Shown here piece by piece: positions 8,124-22,496 of a stretch of DNA of 26,008 nt (the stretch's first letter is position 1; each line of letters opens with the position of its first letter). Made by a program: the position numbers and the translations under genes. Source of the DNA: an uncultured archaeon (lineage in GTDB: Archaea > Asgardarchaeota > Heimdallarchaeia > Heimdallarchaeales > Kariarchaeaceae); assembly GCA_964645535.1 (NCBI GenBank), contig CAZYCQ010000032.1, positions 10,858 to 36,865 on the forward strand. Reading direction: 5' to 3'. The notes below the pieces were generated by a model that saw nothing but the letters and a program-made list of their open reading frames with translations, searched no databases and had not been told where the DNA came from.

Positions 8124-9584
8124 TCAATGATGGAAGGTTGAACCCATCTGCTTCAAATGTTGTCTAGTGGGTGTTTCCCCATCTACCAATCCATCCCTTT
8201 CCCATTCCAATTCCACTTCCCAAAGGGGAATATGAGGAACCAGCTTGTTGATAAACCAGTAAAAGAATATGAAGAAAGCCACTTGCGCAATTGTAATGGC
8301 TATTTCCCCTTGAGTAGGATTGTAGGGGTATATTCCTTCGGATTCATCAATAACGGGAATTCGTAAAGTAGGAACAAGAATAACATATCTTTTAAGCCAT
8401 GCCCCTATATTAACAAGGACTGAAGAAATAAAGGCATACCAATATACTTTGGTTTTTTCCTCTGGTTTCATCGTATTGATTTTGAGTCCCATGACGAATG
8501 GAATAAACATAGTCCCAATGAGGATGAACCAGAAGGTAGGTGCCAAATCACCATAGAAAACCTGGTAAAGAACCTCCATTTCATGCCCTTCACGTTTGTA
8601 AGCGGGAATAAGATATTCATTCAGGGTGAAATATCCGTAAGCGAAGTTTGTGGCCAGGAGGATTTTATTGGCTGATTGAATATGAGAAACAGTAATATAG
8701 TCATCAAGCTTGTAATACCAAGTAAAAACAACTAAAGCGGTTACTAAAGCAGCAGTACCGGAGAATATTGCACCAGAAATGAAGTAAGGTCCAAAAATAG
8801 TGGAATTCCAGCCAGGTCTCCAAGTCACGGCAAATATCCAACTTACAACCGTGTGTACTGAAAGAGCAATGGGAAGGATAAACCATTTGAGTCGTTCCAT
8901 GATGCCATGTTCAAGTTTTTCAAATTGTTCAGGAGTACCTTTCCAATTTAATGCCAAAATCTTATAGATTTTCTGGCGAATTTTATGCTTTCTAGGATCA
9001 AGATTGTCTCTATAATAGGCAAAGTCAGGAATGATGGGAGTATAGAAAAAGATCAGACTTCCAGTCAAATAGAAAGTGATGGAAATAACGTCCCAAACCA
9101 AAGGAGAGGTAATGTTGCCATAAATCACGATATGCTGAGCACGATCCAACCGACCCATGTCAATGAGGACTGAGGCCGCACCCATCACTAAAGAAACAAT
9201 GGTAACTTCTTCTGCAATACGGGTAATGGGGGTTCTGAATTTTGCATCCAGAATTCGTAAAACCGCGGATATAAGCATCCCTACATGGGAAACACCAATC
9301 CAGAAAACAAAATTGGTAATGTAGATACCCCAAAATACCTTTTGGGTCAAGTCAGTGATTGTAAGACCATCAATCAATTGTTTTACTACCCAATAACCAA
9401 ATCCCCAAATCATTAGCCCAACCAACAAGACCATTACAAGGGCTTCGCCAGGTCTAGTGGTGAGAAAAGCTCGTTCAACAATAGCCCTTCGACGGCGGAC
9501 TTCTTCTTCGGTCATGGGATTGCCATCAGGGGTATAAAGACTCTTTTTTGCAGCTTGTTCAATGTTATGTGTTGCTGTTGCCAT
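8124..9584 (-). CDS. NrfD/PsrC-family quinol-interacting membrane subunit, ActC-like
   Basis: About 10 TM. Motifs WGIYITNFVFWIGVSHVG, RIAE, DMGR, SPLVWD, SVHTVVSW, PGWNSTIFGPYFISGAIFSG, WLKRYVI; GAGGTGA RBS. Confidence 0.92.
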   Translation of the reverse strand: MATATHNIEQAAKKSLYTPDGNPMTEEEVRRRRAIVERAFLTTRPGEALVMVLLVGLMIWGFGYWVVKQLIDGLTITDLTQKVFWGIYITNFVFWIGVSHVGMLISAVLRILDAKFRTPITRIAEEVTIVSLVMGAASVLIDMGRLDRAQHIVIYGNITSPLVWDVISITFYLTGSLIFFYTPIIPDFAYYRDNLDPRKHKIRQKIYKILALNWKGTPEQFEKLEHGIMERLKWFILPIALSVHTVVSWIFAVTWRPGWNSTIFGPYFISGAIFSGTAALVTALVVFTWYYKLDDYITVSHIQSANKILLATNFAYGYFTLNEYLIPAYKREGHEMEVLYQVFYGDLAPTFWFILIGTMFIPFVMGLKINTMKPEEKTKVYWYAFISSVLVNIGAWLKRYVILVPTLRIPVIDESEGIYPYNPTQGEIAITIAQVAFFIFFYWFINKLVPHIPLWEVELEWERDGLVDGETPTRQHLKQMGSTFHH

Positions 9585-9590
9585 ATATTG

Positions 9591-10544
9591 TCACCTCGTA
9601 TTTGCAGGAAGGTAAAATACTCGCGGGCGGGTTCCTTCCTCTTCCTTCCATCGGAAACCTTTCCTTTTGGCAATGGTTTCGTCAACAAGAATTGTTTCAC
9701 CATGGTTATTAGTCACTGCATTTTCCAAAAGGTTACCAAAATAGAGAGCCCCCTTATGACATGATGCCACGCAGTGCGGAAGCTTTCCGAGGAATTGATT
9801 ACCACAAAAATCACATTTTGCAATGACTCCTTTTTGTTTAACTATGGAGAAAGGCATTTGCATCTTGAAATCTTTCACAATCTGGGAATCTTCTGTGGCA
9901 TTCTCAAATCGATGGTTCTCTTCCCAGTGGAAGAAACGAACCTCATATGGACATCCAGCCATACAGAGCCTGCATCCGATACATCTTTCTTGGTCGACCA
10001 AAGTCAACCGATCTCCAGATCTTTGCCAAGCAGCCTGAACAGGGCATACATGGACACAGGGAGGATCAATGCATTGCTGGCAGGGTCTTGGGAAGAAATA
10101 GGGTTCAGACCAAGGATTGTCTTTAACTTCAAAGACTTTAATATATTCATGAACTGTTTGGGGATCCTTGGGGTTCTGCCAAGTACCACCTTCCTCAAAG
10201 CCATAGCCCTTGACAGGAGCATAATGACCTTCTTGGCATGCAGAAGTGCAACGGGGGGGTCGACCTTGGGAAGTTAAATCAACACATCCGTCACATTTTG
10301 CGAGATCAATGACCATTCCCCAAACAGTATTTTCCATTCTCCATTGATGATATCTTCTGCCACGATCTCTTTTCTCATCTACCTCAAAGTTGGGCAATCT
10401 GTCCTTCAGAACAAAGTTTCCAGTGAAACCATATACAGTAGCCCCACCGTAGGCCAATAATTTGACCATTGTCCTCCTAGTAGGAGTAATTGTTTGTGAT
10501 GTTTCGACTAAGCTTTCAAATAAGCCTTTATTTTCTTTACTCAT
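9591..10544 (-). CDS. Tat-exported 4x[4Fe-4S] electron-transfer subunit (NrfC/DsrO/QrcC-like)
   Basis: Start revised to ATG 10544 (GGAGGA RBS). Twin-arginine TRRTMVK plus h-region. Four Cys groups: CDGC-x11-CTSAC, CQQCIDPPCVHVCP, CIGCRLCMAGCP, CDFC-x10-CVASC. Confidence 0.92.
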   Translation of the reverse strand: MSKENKGLFESLVETSQTITPTRRTMVKLLAYGGATVYGFTGNFVLKDRLPNFEVDEKRDRGRRYHQWRMENTVWGMVIDLAKCDGCVDLTSQGRPPRCTSACQEGHYAPVKGYGFEEGGTWQNPKDPQTVHEYIKVFEVKDNPWSEPYFFPRPCQQCIDPPCVHVCPVQAAWQRSGDRLTLVDQERCIGCRLCMAGCPYEVRFFHWEENHRFENATEDSQIVKDFKMQMPFSIVKQKGVIAKCDFCGNQFLGKLPHCVASCHKGALYFGNLLENAVTNNHGETILVDETIAKRKGFRWKEEEGTRPRVFYLPANTR

Positions 10545-10546
10545 TT

Positions 10547-11731
10547 CTAGTCCTCCGTTTCTTCCATTCGCTTCCCAACAAAGGAAATGTATGCCAGTTT
10601 CATTATTGCAGCTACATATTCCCAAATAAGCATAGTGATTATGAGCATTAAGAGATATATGAAGACTGCACCAATCAAATGTCCAGAGTTATTGAATAGA
10701 TCAGGATTAATTAGGAAGCGTTCGGGGTCATCAAATTCAGGATCTGCCACAATGTTATGGACATAAATTTCTTCAAATCTATCATTAAGTCCATTAACAA
10801 TAGTACTTTTAGTTGCGCCGGTAAATCCTTGTTGCGGATAGATAATTGCAACCAATTCTCTTTCCTCAAATGTCGCAATAGAAAGATCAACAACCAATTC
10901 AGCGACCCCGTTGCCATCGGTGGTGTTTGTCCCTAGCACAACTCCACCGAAATTGGTAACCATCCTGAATTCAACCTCGGTTCCAGCAGGAGCATTCTTT
11001 ACAGTTGCTTTGAGAAGGTATGTTTCATCTTCAATTTTCGAAACTGTAAAGGAATCAATGCTTACAGTTTGTGGAAGAGGAATATTACTTGGCAACAGAG
11101 TAGCTTTCAAATTACGAGGCGTATGATAAGTATGGTATGTCAATTGATCGCTAGAATTATGAGCAGCCATAAAGAAGCCATATGTACCTCCAACTTGCCA
11201 ATTGTAGTTTCCACCATGTGCAGTTCCATTGAGGGGAAGAAGAAATTCTACGGTCGTTCCAGTTGCATCTTCATTTACGGCAACGGAACCATTGAAATCT
11301 TCTAAGAACATAAGAAAACTAGGGAATTGATTTCCTATACCTCTCCATACAGAGGGTTGGAATGGAGTTGTCCCTTCTGCCCCAGTTGTCACCAAGGTTG
11401 AATTAAGCATTCCATTATCGCCAAAGCCAAAACCCACCCATCCGAATAATTTAGATCGTATTCCAATTTTCAGATGAGTGGAGTTATGAATAAAGGAAAC
11501 ATCAACGAAGTTGAAACCATCCACAGAAGTTAGAGAATTAGTTTCAGGATATTCATTGGGATTTATTGACCCATCAACAGAGCTCATGTCAATTGAACTA
11601 GAATAAATATAGTAATTGAAAGTCTCCCGTTGATTGAGTGCAATTTGTCCAGAAACGGTGTTCAATCCCCATAAATGGCTTGAGAAAAGAAACACCAACA
11701 TTAAGGTCAAAAAACACCATCGTTTTTTCAT
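10547..11731 (-). CDS. Secreted, C-terminally anchored DOMON (heme b-type) plus Ig-like domain protein
   Basis: Sec-type signal. DOMON motifs GWVGFGFG..GM, TTVEFLLPL and LTYH (Met/His ligand positions). Ig-like TTDGNGVA strand, C-terminal TM helix, AGGTGA RBS. Confidence 0.75.
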   Translation of the reverse strand: MKKRWCFLTLMLVFLFSSHLWGLNTVSGQIALNQRETFNYYIYSSSIDMSSVDGSINPNEYPETNSLTSVDGFNFVDVSFIHNSTHLKIGIRSKLFGWVGFGFGDNGMLNSTLVTTGAEGTTPFQPSVWRGIGNQFPSFLMFLEDFNGSVAVNEDATGTTVEFLLPLNGTAHGGNYNWQVGGTYGFFMAAHNSSDQLTYHTYHTPRNLKATLLPSNIPLPQTVSIDSFTVSKIEDETYLLKATVKNAPAGTEVEFRMVTNFGGVVLGTNTTDGNGVAELVVDLSIATFEERELVAIIYPQQGFTGATKSTIVNGLNDRFEEIYVHNIVADPEFDDPERFLINPDLFNNSGHLIGAVFIYLLMLIITMLIWEYVAAIMKLAYISFVGKRMEETED

Positions 11732-11841
11732 TGCAAAACTTCACCTATTCCAAGTGATTCTTAACCCTTCCATAATGTAAGTATCTTTATACCATTCGAT
11801 TGTTTTTGCAGATTATGAAAATTATATCCCGTATTATTTAT

Positions 11842-13092
11842 CTATTCAAGTTCTTTTTTTTCATTACCACTTGATTCGAGGGAGATATCAGCAGAGCCGT
11901 CAGGATGAATCCGAACTGATTTTATTGAAGAAGTTCCCCTTTTGATTTCTTTAAACACCTCATTGGTGAACCATTGTGAAAAAGGAGTGCCATAATATAT
12001 TTGATTCCAAATATCGTAAATTCCAGGAACTTCATTTTTTTCAATGAGTGTTCCGATAATTAGCTCAACTTTTTCTGGATCACCATCTGCCAGATCTGCA
12101 ATTTTGCCCAATTTGGCAGTTTGCCACGGAGGAGTGGAGATCAGAATCCTTTTCACAGAATTGTATAGACGGACTCTTTCAAGCGTTTCAGGATCCAACC
12201 CGATCTTATTTTCCTCAGTGGCAAAAATTTCGTCTACTTTGTTCTTAAGTTCATCTCTTTTTCGGTATAGTATATCTGACTGTCGGGCACTCAATATCTC
12301 TCGCGCTCTTGCGCGAGCCTTCTCCATTTCCGAGGGTTCATCGGTAGAAGAAACAGGTTGCACCATAGTTTTTTTTCGTGCCTCATCCAACGAGGCTTTT
12401 GTTAAGATTTTTTTGTAAAGCAGAGGAAGTTCCAATGCGATGGTATTTGCAGAGGAAAATTCCATATAAAGCAAAACACCACTAGCCACTAATGAGACAA
12501 TAATAAGGGTAATTGCATCAATAGAAGAAGATAAGCCAGGGATATGGACAGCCGTAGTCTCAGTTGAAGTATCCCATAAGGAGAGTACGGAGAAATAAAT
12601 TGCCGTTATATGGATGAGTGTGGTTAATGGGGAGGGGACCACTAAAATTTGAAACCAAGATACATTCTCATTGTTGTGGCCAGAAATTACAAAACGCATT
12701 TGATAGATATTTTTTATTTCGAATTCAAGACCTGAATCGGTATCATCAGGTGCATTTCCATGAAGGGACCGATTTATTTTTGATATGATGTCACGATCGA
12801 GAGATGGAACATCAAGAGGCGTAGATTCAACCCTAACCCCCAATCTTCGAAATATGTTGAGATGGAAAAAGAGTGTTAAAATCAATAGAATTGTTTGAAA
12901 TTCAGAATAGCCAAGATCAAATGCAAAAAAACCAACCTCAATCGCACCAATTGAAATTACAAATAAAGAATAGGTGCGTAATGGCAATGTGGAAAGAGAT
13001 TCCTTCCCAAGTAATTGATGAAGTACAGGGAAAATCAGAACATAGGTTAGAAGTATAACATGCCAAAATGCCAGACGAAAGAAGGTTTCCAT
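11842..13092 (-). CDS. Multi-pass membrane protein with coiled coil and C-terminal PCI-like winged helix
   Basis: Likely start METFFRL (13092). About 5 TM, charged helical linker, then KLGKIADLADGDPEKVELIIGTLIEKNEVPGIYD. Confidence 0.7.
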   Translation of the reverse strand: METFFRLAFWHVILLTYVLIFPVLHQLLGKESLSTLPLRTYSLFVISIGAIEVGFFAFDLGYSEFQTILLILTLFFHLNIFRRLGVRVESTPLDVPSLDRDIISKINRSLHGNAPDDTDSGLEFEIKNIYQMRFVISGHNNENVSWFQILVVPSPLTTLIHITAIYFSVLSLWDTSTETTAVHIPGLSSSIDAITLIIVSLVASGVLLYMEFSSANTIALELPLLYKKILTKASLDEARKKTMVQPVSSTDEPSEMEKARARAREILSARQSDILYRKRDELKNKVDEIFATEENKIGLDPETLERVRLYNSVKRILISTPPWQTAKLGKIADLADGDPEKVELIIGTLIEKNEVPGIYDIWNQIYYGTPFSQWFTNEVFKEIKRGTSSIKSVRIHPDGSADISLESSGNEKKELE

Positions 13093-13150
13093 CAATCTAT
13101 TACAGGAAAACTGGGCAGAAAAACTTACGCTTTGGTCTCTTTGAATTTGA

Positions 13151-14182
13151 TTATGTTGTGATACCACCAAACATTTCAAGATATCGGCGAGTTTCGATTT
13201 TCAAAGACCACAATATGATCCCCTCAATTACCAATACCATAGGCAATGAAAGTACCACCATACTTACCATGGTAGGATCAGGAGTGACAACTGCTGCAAG
13301 AGCAAACACACCAAAAATCATTTCCCTTCGTCTAGAATAAATTTGCTCTGCTTGGATCAGATCAAGTTGGACAAGAGCAACCAAAATCATAGGAGAAGCA
13401 TACAGAACTCCGGCACCCACGGTACCCCAAATCAGAACTGCCAAAACTGCTTGCAAATCAAACCACGGCTGGACATTTTCAACAAAGGTTGAAGTTAAGG
13501 AGAGAATTTTGAGAGTGATTGGAATTATTGTTGTGAAGGAAATTGTAGCCCCTAGAAGAAATAAAAACACCCCAACAAGTACAACCTGTCTTAGAACTTC
13601 ATCCTCCCTTTGGGTTAGACCCGGACGAATATATTCATACAATTCACGGACTGTCAAAGGGAGGGAAATTAAAAGAGCGATTGATCCAGCAAAATTAATA
13701 TAAAGAGTAACAGGAGCTATCGGAGTTCCAACATAGACCGTTATTCCCGCGGCACCTTTCTGTAATGATGTCACACCGTATGATACAATGTAATTTAATA
13801 AGTCAAGTACAGCAGGACGGTAAGGAGAAAGAGTGAAATGACCATTTTCATATGATGGAAAGACCATCACAATCACTGTTAAAAGAAAAACCGTTCGAGC
13901 AACTTTTCGAAGCCGAGTCCAAAGTTCAACAAGATGATCTTCAAGCGGAAGAGGACCACCATCGTATTTGAGGCGGAGCAAAGGGTCTTTACTCAGAGAA
14001 GGAGTGGTCATGCCAAACAAGGGGTCAGGCTTCTTGCTTTCTTCCAAAAATTCCTGAACGAATGAAGGTAAGGTTTCTCCAGGAGCAGAAGTCAGAGCAA
14101 TCTCTTCCGCTAAAGCCCTTGCTGTTGCTTGACCTTCTTTCATCCACCTTGGAACGTATGGTTGTTTGTCAGACGACATCAA
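13151..14182 (-). CDS. tatC: Twin-arginine translocase subunit TatC
   Basis: PLEDHLVELWTRL, YIRPGLTQRE and AAVVTPDPTMVSM motifs; 6 TM; ~70-aa N-terminal extension. Confidence 0.95.
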   Translation of the reverse strand: MMSSDKQPYVPRWMKEGQATARALAEEIALTSAPGETLPSFVQEFLEESKKPDPLFGMTTPSLSKDPLLRLKYDGGPLPLEDHLVELWTRLRKVARTVFLLTVIVMVFPSYENGHFTLSPYRPAVLDLLNYIVSYGVTSLQKGAAGITVYVGTPIAPVTLYINFAGSIALLISLPLTVRELYEYIRPGLTQREDEVLRQVVLVGVFLFLLGATISFTTIIPITLKILSLTSTFVENVQPWFDLQAVLAVLIWGTVGAGVLYASPMILVALVQLDLIQAEQIYSRRREMIFGVFALAAVVTPDPTMVSMVVLSLPMVLVIEGIILWSLKIETRRYLEMFGGITT

Positions 14183-14188
14183 TCATCA

Positions 14189-14491
14189 TCAAGAGGAATT
14201 GAGTAAATCCTGAGCAATAGCTTCAATGGAACGGTGCTCTGTCGGGATTCCCTTTGCTTTTGCGGCACGTATAATCTCCCTTTCCTCAGGAGTTAAGGCC
14301 GGATCTAAACCATCCTGCGGTTCTGTCAAGGATGATTTGACTTGGTTTAATCCCTCCTTATATTTTGCATGAGCCTGTCCCAAAGCTTGGGCAAATTGCG
14401 GAATTTTTTGAGGTCCGAAAAGTAATAATGCAAGACCAACGATTAGAATAACTTCTTGTCCACCAATTGCCATATTCTCACTCTCGTTCAT
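14189..14491 (-). CDS. tatA: Twin-arginine translocase subunit TatA
   Basis: GGQEVILIVGLALLLFGPQKIPQFAQALGQA hinge motif. Alternative start at 14473 (MAIGG). Confidence 0.95.
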   Translation of the reverse strand: MNESENMAIGGQEVILIVGLALLLFGPQKIPQFAQALGQAHAKYKEGLNQVKSSLTEPQDGLDPALTPEEREIIRAAKAKGIPTEHRSIEAIAQDLLNSS

Positions 14492-19143: not shown

Positions 19144-20919
19144 CTAAATAGTAATAATTTCGAAGTTTGATGGAGAAAGTGCCTTAATTTGGTCATTAAG
19201 TTTCTTTAGTTCATCAATGGAGGCCTCATATTTCATTCGCGGAATTTTGTCAAAAATTTCGTCTGCAAGGATATCCTTGAAGTCCACACCTGCATCAAAC
19301 AATTCACGCATTTTGTCATAAAGGTCGAAAATATTTCTTAGCATCCAAGACTGCTTTTCAGGAGAGCAGTAGGAATCCACCGGATGGAATGCGTTTTGTT
19401 GGAGATAATCTTCTTTAAGCATACGAGCGGCTTCAAGAGTAATTCTTTCTGCGGGGGATAAAGCATCGGGACCAACAAGCTGAACGATTTCTTGTAAGTC
19501 ATTGTCCTCTTGAAGGAGGCGGAATGCACGGGTTCGCAATTCATCAAAGTCTTCGGAGAAATGTTCCCGATAATAGTCCTTTAGTACATCCCAATAGAGG
19601 GTATAGCTTTCCAAATAAGAAATGGCAGGGAAATGGCGTTGCTCAGCCAGCTTTTTGGTAAGAGCCCAGAAAACCTTAACAATACGGAGTGTATTTTGGG
19701 TTACAGGCTCTGAGAAATCGCCACCAGGAGGGGAAACAGCACCGATGATAGAAACTGAACCGGTCTTTGTTTCCTTGGAATTCAAGATTTCAACTCTACC
19801 CCCGCGTTCATAGTACGCCGCAATCTTTGATGCAAGATAAGCAGGATAACCAGCTTCACCAGGCATTTCTTCCAGCCGGCCGGAGATTTCTCTCATAGCC
19901 TCCGCCCATCTAGAGGTGGAATCTGCCATCATTGCAACATCATATCCTTGATCTCGGAAATATTCTGCCATAGTGATTCCAGTATAAACAGAAGCTTCAC
20001 GGGCAGCAACAGGCATATTTGAGGTGTTTGCAATCATAGTTGTACGAGCCATGAGCTTTAGACCAGTTGTCGGGTCATCAAGATGTGGAAATTCCTCTAG
20101 GACATTGGTCATTTCATTGCCCCTCTCACCGCACCCAACGTAAACAACCACTTGAGCATTACAGAATTTTGCCAATTGATGTTGACTGACTGTTTTTCCT
20201 GTGCCAAATGGACCAGGGATAGCCGCGACTCCACCTTTGGCGATTGGGAAAAATGTATCGAATATCCTTTGACCAGTGATTAACGGTTCATCAGAAGCAA
20301 GCCTTCGTTTGAAGGGGCGAGGAATTCTCACAGGCCATCTCTGATAACCTAGAATATTGTGACGAGTGCCATCTTCACTTTCTACAACGGCAAGAACTTT
20401 TTCGATAGTGTACTTTCCAGATTCCACAATTTCAACTATTTTTCCAGAGATGTTAGGAGGAATAAGGATTTTGTGGAGAAAAGCCGGGGTTTCCTGTACA
20501 GTGGCAATAACATCACCACCCGAAACCATATCACCCACTTTGGCAACAATTTCAAAGTCCCATTCTTTCTTCAAATCCAATGCAGGTGTTTCGACACCTC
20601 TGTTGATAAACGCACCAGTAACTTCCTTAATTGCTGGAAGGGGTCTTTGAATTCCATCATAGATCTGAGACATTATTCCAGGCCCTAACATAACAGAAAG
20701 GGGTTCACCAGTACCAATAACGGGTTCCCCGGGTTTAATCCCATCGGTAATTTCATAACATTGGATGGTCGCAATGTCACCATCCACCTGAATGATTTCA
20801 CCGATCAATCCAAGTTCTCCAATCCTTGCTACATCATACAGTCGTGCACCAAGCATGCCTTTTGCTTGAACGACAGGACCAGAAATTCGAGTGATTGTAC
20901 CTTTGATTTGTGAGCTCAT
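19144..20919 (-). CDS. atpA: A/V-type ATP synthase catalytic subunit A
   Basis: P-loop [54 protein letters not shown]; GGAGG RBS; no intein. Confidence 0.98.
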
Positions 20920-21017
20920 TTACTAACCTCCAATGGAAGATCAGTTTAATAATTACTTCCATCGATTCGCTTAAGGTTTGGCAAGATTCAATTCTTTAAA
21001 GCATAGTGTTAGTTTTT

Positions 21018-21026
21018 AAAAAAAAA
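21018..21026 (-). terminator. Oligo-T (T9) archaeal terminator candidate after atpB
   Basis: Run of 9 A on the plus strand, about 34 nt downstream of the atpB stop. Confidence 0.45.
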
Positions 21027-21059
21027 GGTGAAAATCAGATGTTAATTTAGGAAACAACA

Positions 21060-22496
21060 TTATGCATTAACATCGTGATAGTTATAATTGGGATCTCGGT
21101 TGGAGGGATAGTATTTATCAATGTATTTTTCATCAATCCGTTTCAATTGTCGTTTGGGATTGGGGAAAATCGTTAGCAATTCCCAACCCAAATCGAGAGT
21201 TTCGAAGATTGTTCTATCTTCTTCATAACCTTGTGAAATAAACTTATCTTCGAAATCCTGAGCAAATTTCAGATAAAGACGATCCTCGTCGGAAAGTGAT
21301 TCTTCACCCACAACTGCAACAAGATCTCTAAGCTCTCGTCCTTTTGCATAAGAGGCATATAGCTGTGATGATAAGGCAGCGTGATCCTCTCGTGTTGAAC
21401 CTTTACCTATGGCTTCCTTCATGAGCCGTGAGAGAGAAGGAAGTGGATTGATTGGAGGATATACACCTTTTCGATGGAGGGCCCGATCAATATAAACTTG
21501 TCCCTCCGTGATATAACCAGTCAGATCGGGAATTGGATGGGTCAAGTCATCATTGGGCATTGTTAGAATGGGAATCTGAGTAATTGACCCCTTCTTTCCG
21601 ATGATTCTTCCCGCCCTTTCATAGATTGTTGAGAGATCAGAATAAAGATAACCTGGAAAACCACGTCTTCCAGGAACTTCCTCTCTTGCTGCGCCGATTT
21701 CTCGTAGAGATTCACAATATGAAGTCATGTCAGTAAGAATTACCAAAACATGGTAATCTTTTTCAAATGCGAGATATTCAGCAACGGTTAATGCAATACG
21801 GGGGGTGATTATTCGTTCAACAGCAGGATCATCCGCGAGATTCAGAAACAGAACAACCTTTTCCAATGCTCCAGTTCTTTCGAAGTCAGATTGGAAAAAT
21901 CTTGCCTCTTCTGCGGTAATACCCATTGCTGCGAAAACCACCGCAAATGATTCCCCTTCACCCAAAACTTTTGCTTGCCGTGCAATTTGGGCACCTACTT
22001 GATTATGAGGAAGTCCAGATCCAGAAAATAATGGAAGTTTTTGTCCTCTAACAAGGGTCAAGAGTGCATCTATTGTTGATATTCCTGTTTGGATAAATGA
22101 ACGAGGATATTCACGGGCAACTGGATTTAGAGGATTACCGGAAATGTCCCTTTTTTCTTCACTGATAATTTGAGGTCCGCCATCAATTGGAATTCCACGT
22201 CCATTGAACACTCGTCCAAGCATTTCTTCAGAGACGCCTATTTCTAAGGTTCGGCCAATGAAACGAACAGAAGTGTCCTTTGTGTCTAGACCGCTGGTTC
22301 CCTCAAAAACCTGAACAACTGCAAGATCGTTGGTAATTTCGAGAACTTGACCCCGTCTTCGTTCACCGAAGCTTGTTTCCACTTCACATATTTCACCATA
22401 ACTGACACCACCTTTTCCTTGGAGGTCAACAAAAAGTAGTGGGCCAGAAACTTCTCTTACTGTTTTGTATGATTTTAATTCATTCTTGACTGTCAC
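21060..22496 (-). CDS. atpB: A/V-type ATP synthase subunit B
   Basis: [56 protein letters not shown]; GTG start with GAGGTAGG RBS. Confidence 0.98.

Follow-up and report, generated by a model that had tools for sequence, protein, structure and literature searches.

Introduction

Pairs of an NrfD-type membrane subunit and an NrfC-type iron–sulfur (FeS) protein usually anchor a molybdenum (Mo), tungsten (W) or NiFe catalytic subunit (PMC8076601). Some of the complexes built on such pairs have no catalytic site. In alternative complex III (ACIII; ActABCDEF, structures 6btm, 6f0k, 6lod and 8k9e), an ActC-type NrfD carries a four-cluster FeS module exported by the twin-arginine translocation (Tat) system, alongside the c-type cytochromes ActA and ActE, the molybdopterin-like domain B1 of ActB, ActF as a second NrfD, and ActD. 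The NrfD–FeS–multihaem "menaquinone:cytochrome c oxidoreductase" clusters of Methanoperedenaceae and metal reducers (PMC7327174), and Qrc and DsrMKJOP of sulfate reducers, likewise combine an NrfD and NrfC-type pair with extracytoplasmic haem proteins, in these cases c-type multihaem proteins that need maturation. DOMON-type haem-b subunits are known from elsewhere. EbdC of ethylbenzene dehydrogenase and NxrC of nitrite oxidoreductase are gamma subunits of type II dimethyl sulfoxide (DMSO)-reductase family enzymes, which possess a Mo alpha subunit and lack an NrfD; each docks on a beta subunit that carries four clusters and is a homologue of NrfC. The 2021 review of the NrfD family lists no haem-b DOMON exit module (PMC8076601), and our literature search found no paper describing NrfD combined with DOMON as a complex. 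Here we describe a gene triplet of this composition (DOMON protein, NrfC-type ferredoxin and ActC-like NrfD) in an uncultured heimdallarchaeial archaeon. The DNA analysed, referred to as the window, is a 26,008-nt stretch of contig C32 (CAZYCQ010000032.1, positions 10,858 to 36,865) of a 3.6 Mb archaeal genome that is 89% complete. Its relatives and database names assign it to the Heimdall group of Asgard archaea, with Kariarchaeaceae as the probable family.

We interpret the triplet as an extracytoplasm-facing, quinone-linked electron-transfer complex, with an ActC-like core and a DOMON haem-b head, that would pass electrons from quinol to the outside; we put the probability of this reading at roughly 0.62. 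The triplet resembles ACIII in its ActC-type NrfD (E-values 2e-55 to 8e-46), its Tat-exported four-cluster FeS module predicted to sit on NrfD, the lack of a catalytic site and a proposed one-electron haem carrier at the outer face. Unlike ACIII, it has no ActA or ActE cytochromes, ActB1 molybdopterin-like domain, ActF or ActD. Its predicted exit haem is that of a b-type DOMON domain on an immunoglobulin (Ig)-like stalk, ActC residue Asp253 is not kept, and its FeS protein scores nearer to DsrO, PsrB and ArrB than to ActB. As an archaeal NrfD–FeS–multihaem complex has been described, the kind of complex is already known; in contrast to the multihaem clusters, the triplet has a single predicted non-covalent haem-b DOMON protein in a genome without maturation genes, and its proteins do not reach the cut-offs of the DsrO, DsrP and QrcC models. 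The DOMON domain has its best fold matches in EbdC and NxrC. In contrast to these enzymes, the triplet loci carry no alpha subunit gene, and the DOMON protein adds the Ig stalk and a transmembrane (TM) anchor and has a conserved Met/His pair.

Conservation of the Triplet

The DOMON, NrfC and NrfD genes were found in fixed order at 15 loci, distributed over 11 Asgard genomes (five families or genera) and two metagenome contigs. At all 15 loci the DOMON gene lay directly upstream of NrfC–NrfD, with DOMON identity as low as about 25%. Conservation of the DOMON gene beside the pair, on which the first-pass annotation of the window had made its interpretation depend, was thus seen throughout. Besides the genome under study, the triplet occurs in three other species of the same genus (G053, G054 and G055). 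Within the family it is also present in four other genera (G052, G047, G049 and G051, where there are three copies). Outside the family it occurs in two species that belong to another family of the same class and have a double DOMON (G069 and G070), and in a genome from a different family of the phylum, with two copies (G397). A profile scan of genome contigs with the DOMON alignment yielded one locus, and a metagenome scan with a closer alignment yielded three.

In an all-against-all comparison of neighbouring genes, the triplet was the sole gene set common to all loci. Genes for LanC-like, thioredoxin-like and Cytochrom_C_asm (CcsA/CcmF-type) proteins lie near the triplet in G051, G069 and G070 (L045:2969-7396; L052:969-6716; L051:14109-16585); we rejected them as parts of the module, as not all lineages have them there and the genome under study lacks them. 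Two 330-aa CxxCH proteins are also encoded near the triplet in G051, and these too have no counterpart in the genome under study.

NrfD and FeS Subunits

The NrfD protein scored 91.5 bits against Pfam NrfD (PF03916; cut-off 25.8). When it was compared to all Protein Data Bank (PDB) sequences, the only real matches were the ActC chains 6btm_C (2.4e-55), 6f0k_C (1.2e-51), 6lod_C and 8k9e_C, spanning E-values from 2.4e-55 to 8e-46 over residues 52–458; PsrC was unmatched in this search even at E ≤ 1. The description as ActC-like in the first-pass annotation is borne out by these matches. That annotation had also counted 10 TM helices; the NrfD assignment stands, and the number of helices is the one implied by the near full-length alignment with ActC, not a direct count.

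Quinone-site residues defined by Calisto and Pereira (PMC8076601; Rhodothermus marinus numbering) were read off the alignment of NrfD with R. marinus ActC. The equivalents of Ser164 and Asp169 are kept. His139 is replaced by Asp, also a protonatable residue and the one present in DsrP and QrcD, and Asp253 by Ile.

The NrfC protein carries the twin-arginine motif TRRTMVKL and 16 Cys in four motif groups, predicted to bind four cubane clusters, in agreement with its earlier description as a twin-arginine polyferredoxin. Both the RR motif and the Cys residues are kept in orthologues. The best NCBIfam scores were all below cut-off (DsrO, 128 bits with a cut-off of 200; QrcC, 98 bits; NrfC, 93 bits), and since no equivalog cut-off was reached, the protein is not an orthologue of any named subunit. 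Scores against models of type II beta subunits were low (NarH 54 bits, EbdB 47 bits). In the PDB, ArrB and PsrB scored about 72 bits and the FeS domain of ActB about 52 bits. The protein consists of ferredoxin domains only, with no fused molybdopterin-like B1 domain as in ActB. A longer reading frame starting from a TTG at 10625 was rejected because orthologues do not support it, and the ATG start was taken.

DOMON Subunit

On its own, the DOMON protein matched Pfam DOMON with an E-value of 3e-4 and 21 bits, under the cut-off of 32.7. An exhaustive profile search gathered a family of 83 representative clusters, and all 53 aligned homologues matched Pfam DOMON (PF03351; best 9.5e-19). Four of the 53 also matched the cytochrome family of cellobiose dehydrogenase (CDH), and many contained Big_1 or Big_3_5 Ig domains. 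Members with a named source belonged to Heimdallarchaeota, Hodarchaeales, Thorarchaeota and Geothermarchaeales, and their annotations did not go beyond "DOMON-domain" or "hypothetical" protein. The AlphaFold2 (AF2) model (mean confidence score, pLDDT, 88) contained a signal peptide, a beta-sandwich (residues 40–214), an Ig-like domain (221–315), a linker modelled with low confidence and, at the C-terminus, a long helix. The anchored DOMON protein named in the first-pass annotation is therefore recovered both in the homologues and in the modelled fold.

Foldseek searches with the full-length model were dominated by Ig-like matches; VIA-align wide resolved the DOMON domain. Its top structural match was EbdC (2ivf_C, Z 17.4, root-mean-square deviation 2.7 over 168 residues), followed by anammox NxrC (7b04_C, Z 15.1). 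For pyranose and cellobiose dehydrogenases, the cytochrome domains scored Z 11.5–13.1. The sequence profile of the family matched only Ig-domain structures in the PDB and no solved haem DOMON.

Met108 and His200 were conserved in at least 90% of the 53 homologues, in an alignment with a mean column identity of 20%. They form the pair expected for a Met/His-ligated DOMON cytochrome and are candidate haem ligands. The axial haem ligands of EbdC are Met and Lys. No CxxCH motif was found in the DOMON protein or its orthologues.

The TM anchor was the best conserved segment of the protein, with 85–94% identity in close orthologues versus 54–89% for the other domains, which suggests specific packing inside a membrane complex. 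Bacterial relatives of this NrfD occur in Actinomycetota and Chloroflexota. Three bacterial NrfD relatives (P0149, P0164 and P0180) are extended at the C-terminus, and the extension includes an Ig-like domain (Big_1/Big_3_5) of the kind seen in the DOMON stalk.

Search for a Catalytic Partner

No Mo or NiFe catalytic gene was found near the triplet at any of the 15 loci. The genome encodes three molybdopterin enzymes: narGHJI with narK (C61), a psrB–psrC–psrA-like set (C33) and a YdeP-like protein (C5). The nar enzyme is of the cytoplasmic type and has its own FeS and membrane subunits. The psr-like set has its own NrfD (the genome encodes no other besides that of the triplet) and its own tatA–tatC–X443 genes, which follow it. 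The YdeP-like enzyme was rejected as a partner, as it has no Tat signal and is cytoplasmic. NarG was rejected on co-occurrence, as only four of the 10 genomes in the class that have the triplet also have narG. No NiFe hydrogenase scored above cut-off in the genome, at its 89% completeness. Given that the Mo enzymes have their own partners, that no NiFe hydrogenase was found and that narG is found in a minority of triplet genomes, we see no catalytic subunit that co-occurs with the pair. This agrees with the first-pass annotation, which had reported no molybdopterin enzyme or hydrogenase adjacent to the triplet, and the co-occurring catalytic subunit that would have told against its reading did not turn up.

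The psr-like set itself (L007, C33, 5565–10277) includes a 968-aa catalytic subunit with a Tat signal and weak molybdopterin Pfam scores. On C61, two short DOMON paralogues with a signal peptide and a hydrophobic C-tail flank narGHJI–narK (L039, 4676–5458 and 13482–14240). They are 37–38% identical and share the same Met/His pair. In five genomes from three genera, the gene immediately upstream of narG encodes a DOMON paralogue.

Respiratory Context

The genome contains two haem-copper oxidase operons, and both subunit II proteins have the full CuA motif. We found no cytochrome b, Cytochrom_C_asm, blue copper protein, cytochrome bd or NirK in this genome, absences that are provisional at its level of completeness. 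There was also no bc-type Rieske protein; the only Rieske protein is small and soluble and lies in a suf-type context. An inventory of Rieske and cytochrome b proteins, oxidases, cupredoxins and orphan Mo subunits had been proposed in the first-pass annotation, and its outcome was two CuA oxidases and no cytochrome b, bc-type Rieske protein, blue copper protein or orphan Mo subunit.

Published accounts of electron supply to Cox disagree. In a culture-based study, Imachi, Nobu and colleagues state that all Cox-bearing Heimdallarchaeia are without complex III and without a discernible route to Cox (10.1101/2025.02.26.640444). Genes for qcrABC (menaquinol–cytochrome c reductase, complex III) were reported in several Heimdallarchaeia metagenome-assembled genomes by Appler and colleagues (10.1101/2024.07.04.601786). 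Among 83 genomes of the class, cytochrome b was found in four. In three genomes, the gene directly upstream of that for cytochrome b codes for a secreted, C-anchored protein that is a distant relative of the DOMON family (L062:3240-5180, L063:6231-8127 and L064:3288-5097). It matched the DOMON family in hhalign with 98.3% probability and an E-value of 2e-14, and conservation of the Met ligand is not obvious. Such cytochrome-b-linked DOMON relatives may explain the reported "partial complex III" of these archaea.

A 127-aa Cox2-like cupredoxin with a CxxxCxxxH motif and no Met at the CuA Met position is encoded just upstream of the second oxidase operon (L056, C6, 7501–7884). It is possibly a small electron carrier.

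Proposed Mechanism

Gene content, order and conservation, family and fold assignments and the genome inventory were obtained directly. From them we infer haem binding, assembly of the complex, a quinol-oxidising direction, proton coupling and an acceptor. (Mena)quinol would be bound and oxidised near the outer face by the ActC-like NrfD. The Tat-exported NrfC protein would be seated on NrfD, with electrons moving along its four FeS clusters. The DOMON protein would be held in the complex via its conserved C-terminal helix and raised on the Ig-like stalk, and electrons would pass to its Met/His-ligated haem b and on to a partner outside the membrane. In this it would resemble in function the ActB2–ActC core of ACIII, or Qrc and the archaeal NrfD–FeS–multihaem clusters, with c-type cytochromes replaced by a b-type DOMON cytochrome. 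EbdC and NxrC, which dock on beta subunits homologous to NrfC, provide a structural precedent for a contact between DOMON and ferredoxin. No acceptor gene lies within the cluster. The leading candidates in this genome would be the CuA sites of the two haem-copper oxidases, reached directly or via the small DOMON paralogues or the Cox2-like cupredoxin. The first-pass annotation had proposed a minimal ACIII-like quinol oxidoreductase with a b-haem DOMON domain in place of cytochrome c, and the ActC-like NrfD, the DOMON fold nearest to EbdC and NxrC and the conserved Met/His pair support it. Also in its favour are the tight coupling of the three genes, the kept RR motif and Cys residues of NrfC, the triplet as the one gene set shared by all loci, the neighbouring Tat genes in two gene orders, the strongly conserved TM anchor and the lack of a free Mo or NiFe partner. 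To these can be added two CuA oxidases in a genome in which cytochrome b, a bc-type Rieske protein, cytochrome c maturation genes, blue copper protein and cytochrome bd were not found, the stated lack of a route to Cox in Cox-bearing Heimdallarchaeia, and COX1 in all 10 triplet genomes of this class.

Several points weigh against this interpretation. Sequence does not reveal which way the electrons flow, and the residue equivalent to ActC Asp253 is Ile in NrfD. The DOMON domain probably binds haem b, a view that rests on its fold and two conserved residues; its structural matches at Z of about 13 included CBM9, another carbohydrate-binding protein and the DOMON domain of dopamine beta-hydroxylase, non-haem DOMON-like folds among them. 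COX1 was present in 24 of the 83 genomes of the class and ActC-like NrfD in 10, and that all 10 carried COX1 speaks for a link between triplet and oxidase. The link is nevertheless weak: related genomes are not independent samples, the triplet was missing from 14 of the 24 COX1 genomes, and no COX1 accompanies the two triplets of G397. According to a preprint, a recombinant oxidase from Hodarchaeales, with its CuA ligands conserved, acts on ubiquinol and is inactive with cytochrome c (10.1101/2025.11.07.685452). The provisional absences from the 89% complete genome belong here as well.

If the proposed complex is real, the energy-transducing complexes of the NrfD family would gain an exit module with a haem-b DOMON protein, and the triplet may be how these archaea move quinol electrons outside the membrane. 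A conserved, cytochrome-c-independent module from quinol to the outer face in these lineages is a testable candidate for the missing route to Cox. A broader proposal, in which DOMON b-cytochromes generally replace cytochrome c in Heimdall-group Asgards and the triplet is the missing, possibly proton-motive complex III feeding the CuA oxidases, is put forward tentatively, and we would not expect it to hold. Under it, the related DOMON proteins found beside cytochrome b or the nar operon would represent additional arms of this haem-b wiring.

Alternative Explanations

Electrons could also flow the other way, with the DOMON haem taking them from an outside donor (humic substances, a reduced metal or a partner enzyme) for the reduction of menaquinone, as in Qrc. 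The Asp that NrfD shares with DsrP and QrcD at the position of ActC His139, the best NCBIfam matches (DsrO, DsrP and QrcC) and the triplets of G397, a genome without any oxidase, fit this direction. However, characterised DOMON b-haems such as those of CDH and EbdC have a rather high potential, which would be awkward for menaquinone reduction, the cluster has no linked donor enzyme, and all triplet genomes of the class carry high-potential acceptor enzymes. We consider reverse flow unlikely. A role in nitrate respiration appears more doubtful still. Here, the module would pass quinol electrons to the short DOMON paralogues beside narGHJI–narK for an extracytoplasmic nitrogen-oxide step, as the two flanking paralogues with their shared Met/His pair and the recurrence of a paralogue upstream of narG would suggest. 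Against this, narG is absent from six of the 10 triplet genomes, two of which are 93–94% complete, NarGHI takes quinol electrons itself, and the genome under study yielded no NirK.

The two remaining alternatives deny the DOMON protein the role of electron exit. It might be a haem-free, sugar- or ligand-binding module of the DOMON/CBM9 type, as its Pfam score below cut-off, the matches to CBM9 and a carbohydrate-binding protein at Z 13 and the failure of the family profile to reach a solved haem DOMON could indicate. We find this very improbable, because the top structural matches are haem-b subunits (Z 17.4 and 15.1), Met108 and His200 are near-invariant in 53 sequences of about 20% mean identity, four relatives match the CDH cytochrome family, and the DOMON gene is fixed beside that of an FeS protein. 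Little credence can be given to the idea that NrfC–NrfD anchors a Mo, W or NiFe catalytic subunit encoded elsewhere, with DOMON as an accessory. Anchoring is the usual role of such pairs and a partner gene could be missing from the incomplete genome, but the Mo enzymes found are self-partnered or cytoplasmic, NiFe hydrogenase was not detected, narG accompanies only four of 10 triplet genomes, no catalytic gene lies near the 15 loci, and ActC-type NrfDs serve non-catalytic complexes.

Locus Layout and Tat Genes

The minus strand carries six genes in the order tatA, tatC, X445, DOMON gene, NrfC-type ferredoxin and NrfD (Table 1). The stop of the DOMON gene and the start of NrfC are separated by 2 nt, and NrfC and NrfD by 6 nt, so the coordinates and gaps confirm the three tightly coupled minus-strand genes described in the first-pass annotation. 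It had also placed them downstream of tatA–tatC; the order was right, and the X445 gene between tatC and the DOMON gene had been overlooked. The gap between tatA and tatC is 6 nt. Upstream of the DOMON gene there is an AT-rich spacer of 110 nt; downstream of NrfD, a stretch of the sequence is rich in T. A motif check found no CxxCH in any protein of the cluster, in line with the earlier statement that no CxxCH multihaem protein is adjacent, and the molybdopterin family PF00384 was unmatched anywhere in the window.

Table 1. Genes of the cluster, and domains and candidate ligands of the DOMON protein (nucleotide positions in the window)
Feature	Nucleotides	Strand	Residues or length	Details
tatA	14189-14491	minus	100 aa	Pfam TatA_B_E E 5.6e-10
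tatC	13151-14182	minus	343 aa	Pfam TatC E 9e-36; TIGR01912 TatC-Arch 113 bits
X445, Tat-linked membrane protein	11842-13092/13179	minus	416-445 aa	about 6 TM helices and a soluble C-terminal part
DOMON-Ig-TM protein	10547-11731	minus	394 aa	Sec signal, DOMON, Ig-like domain, linker, TM anchor
DOMON domain	11090-11614		40-214	within DOMON-Ig-TM protein
Ig-like domain	10787-11071		221-315	within DOMON-Ig-TM protein
TM anchor	10562-10678		352-390	long C-terminal helix of AF2 model, 352-393
Candidate haem ligand Met108	11408-11410		108	DOMON protein
Candidate haem ligand His200	11132-11134		200	DOMON protein
NrfC/DsrO-type Tat-exported ferredoxin	9591-10544	minus	317 aa	Fer4_11 E 2e-23; 16 Cys
ActC-like NrfD membrane subunit	8124-9584	minus	486 aa	Pfam NrfD E 1e-25

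Export of the folded FeS subunit is the most likely task of the tatA and tatC products, with or without X445. The genome holds two copies of tatA, one of them here. X445 had no match in Pfam or NCBIfam searches. Its likely true start is Met30 (position 13092), and residues 308–410 show a weak resemblance to PCI-like winged-helix domains. A gene of the X445 family follows tatC in both Tat loci of the genome and in G053, G054, G055, G047, G049, G051, L057 and L058, and the protein is possibly a Tat accessory, so far undescribed, in these archaea. In five lineages the tatA–tatC–X445 trio comes before the triplet and in G049 after it; found on either side, the Tat link appears to survive rearrangement. 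The second trio of the genome, tatA–tatC–X443, lies on C33 (26416–28984), and each of the two trios adjoins an NrfCD-type module.

Further along in the window, a 49-aa open reading frame downstream of the triplet and a HEAT protein were not conserved beside it. At 19144–22496, the genes for the B and A subunits of an A-type ATPase stand alone, in reversed order and apart from the other ATPase genes, an arrangement kept in the genus.

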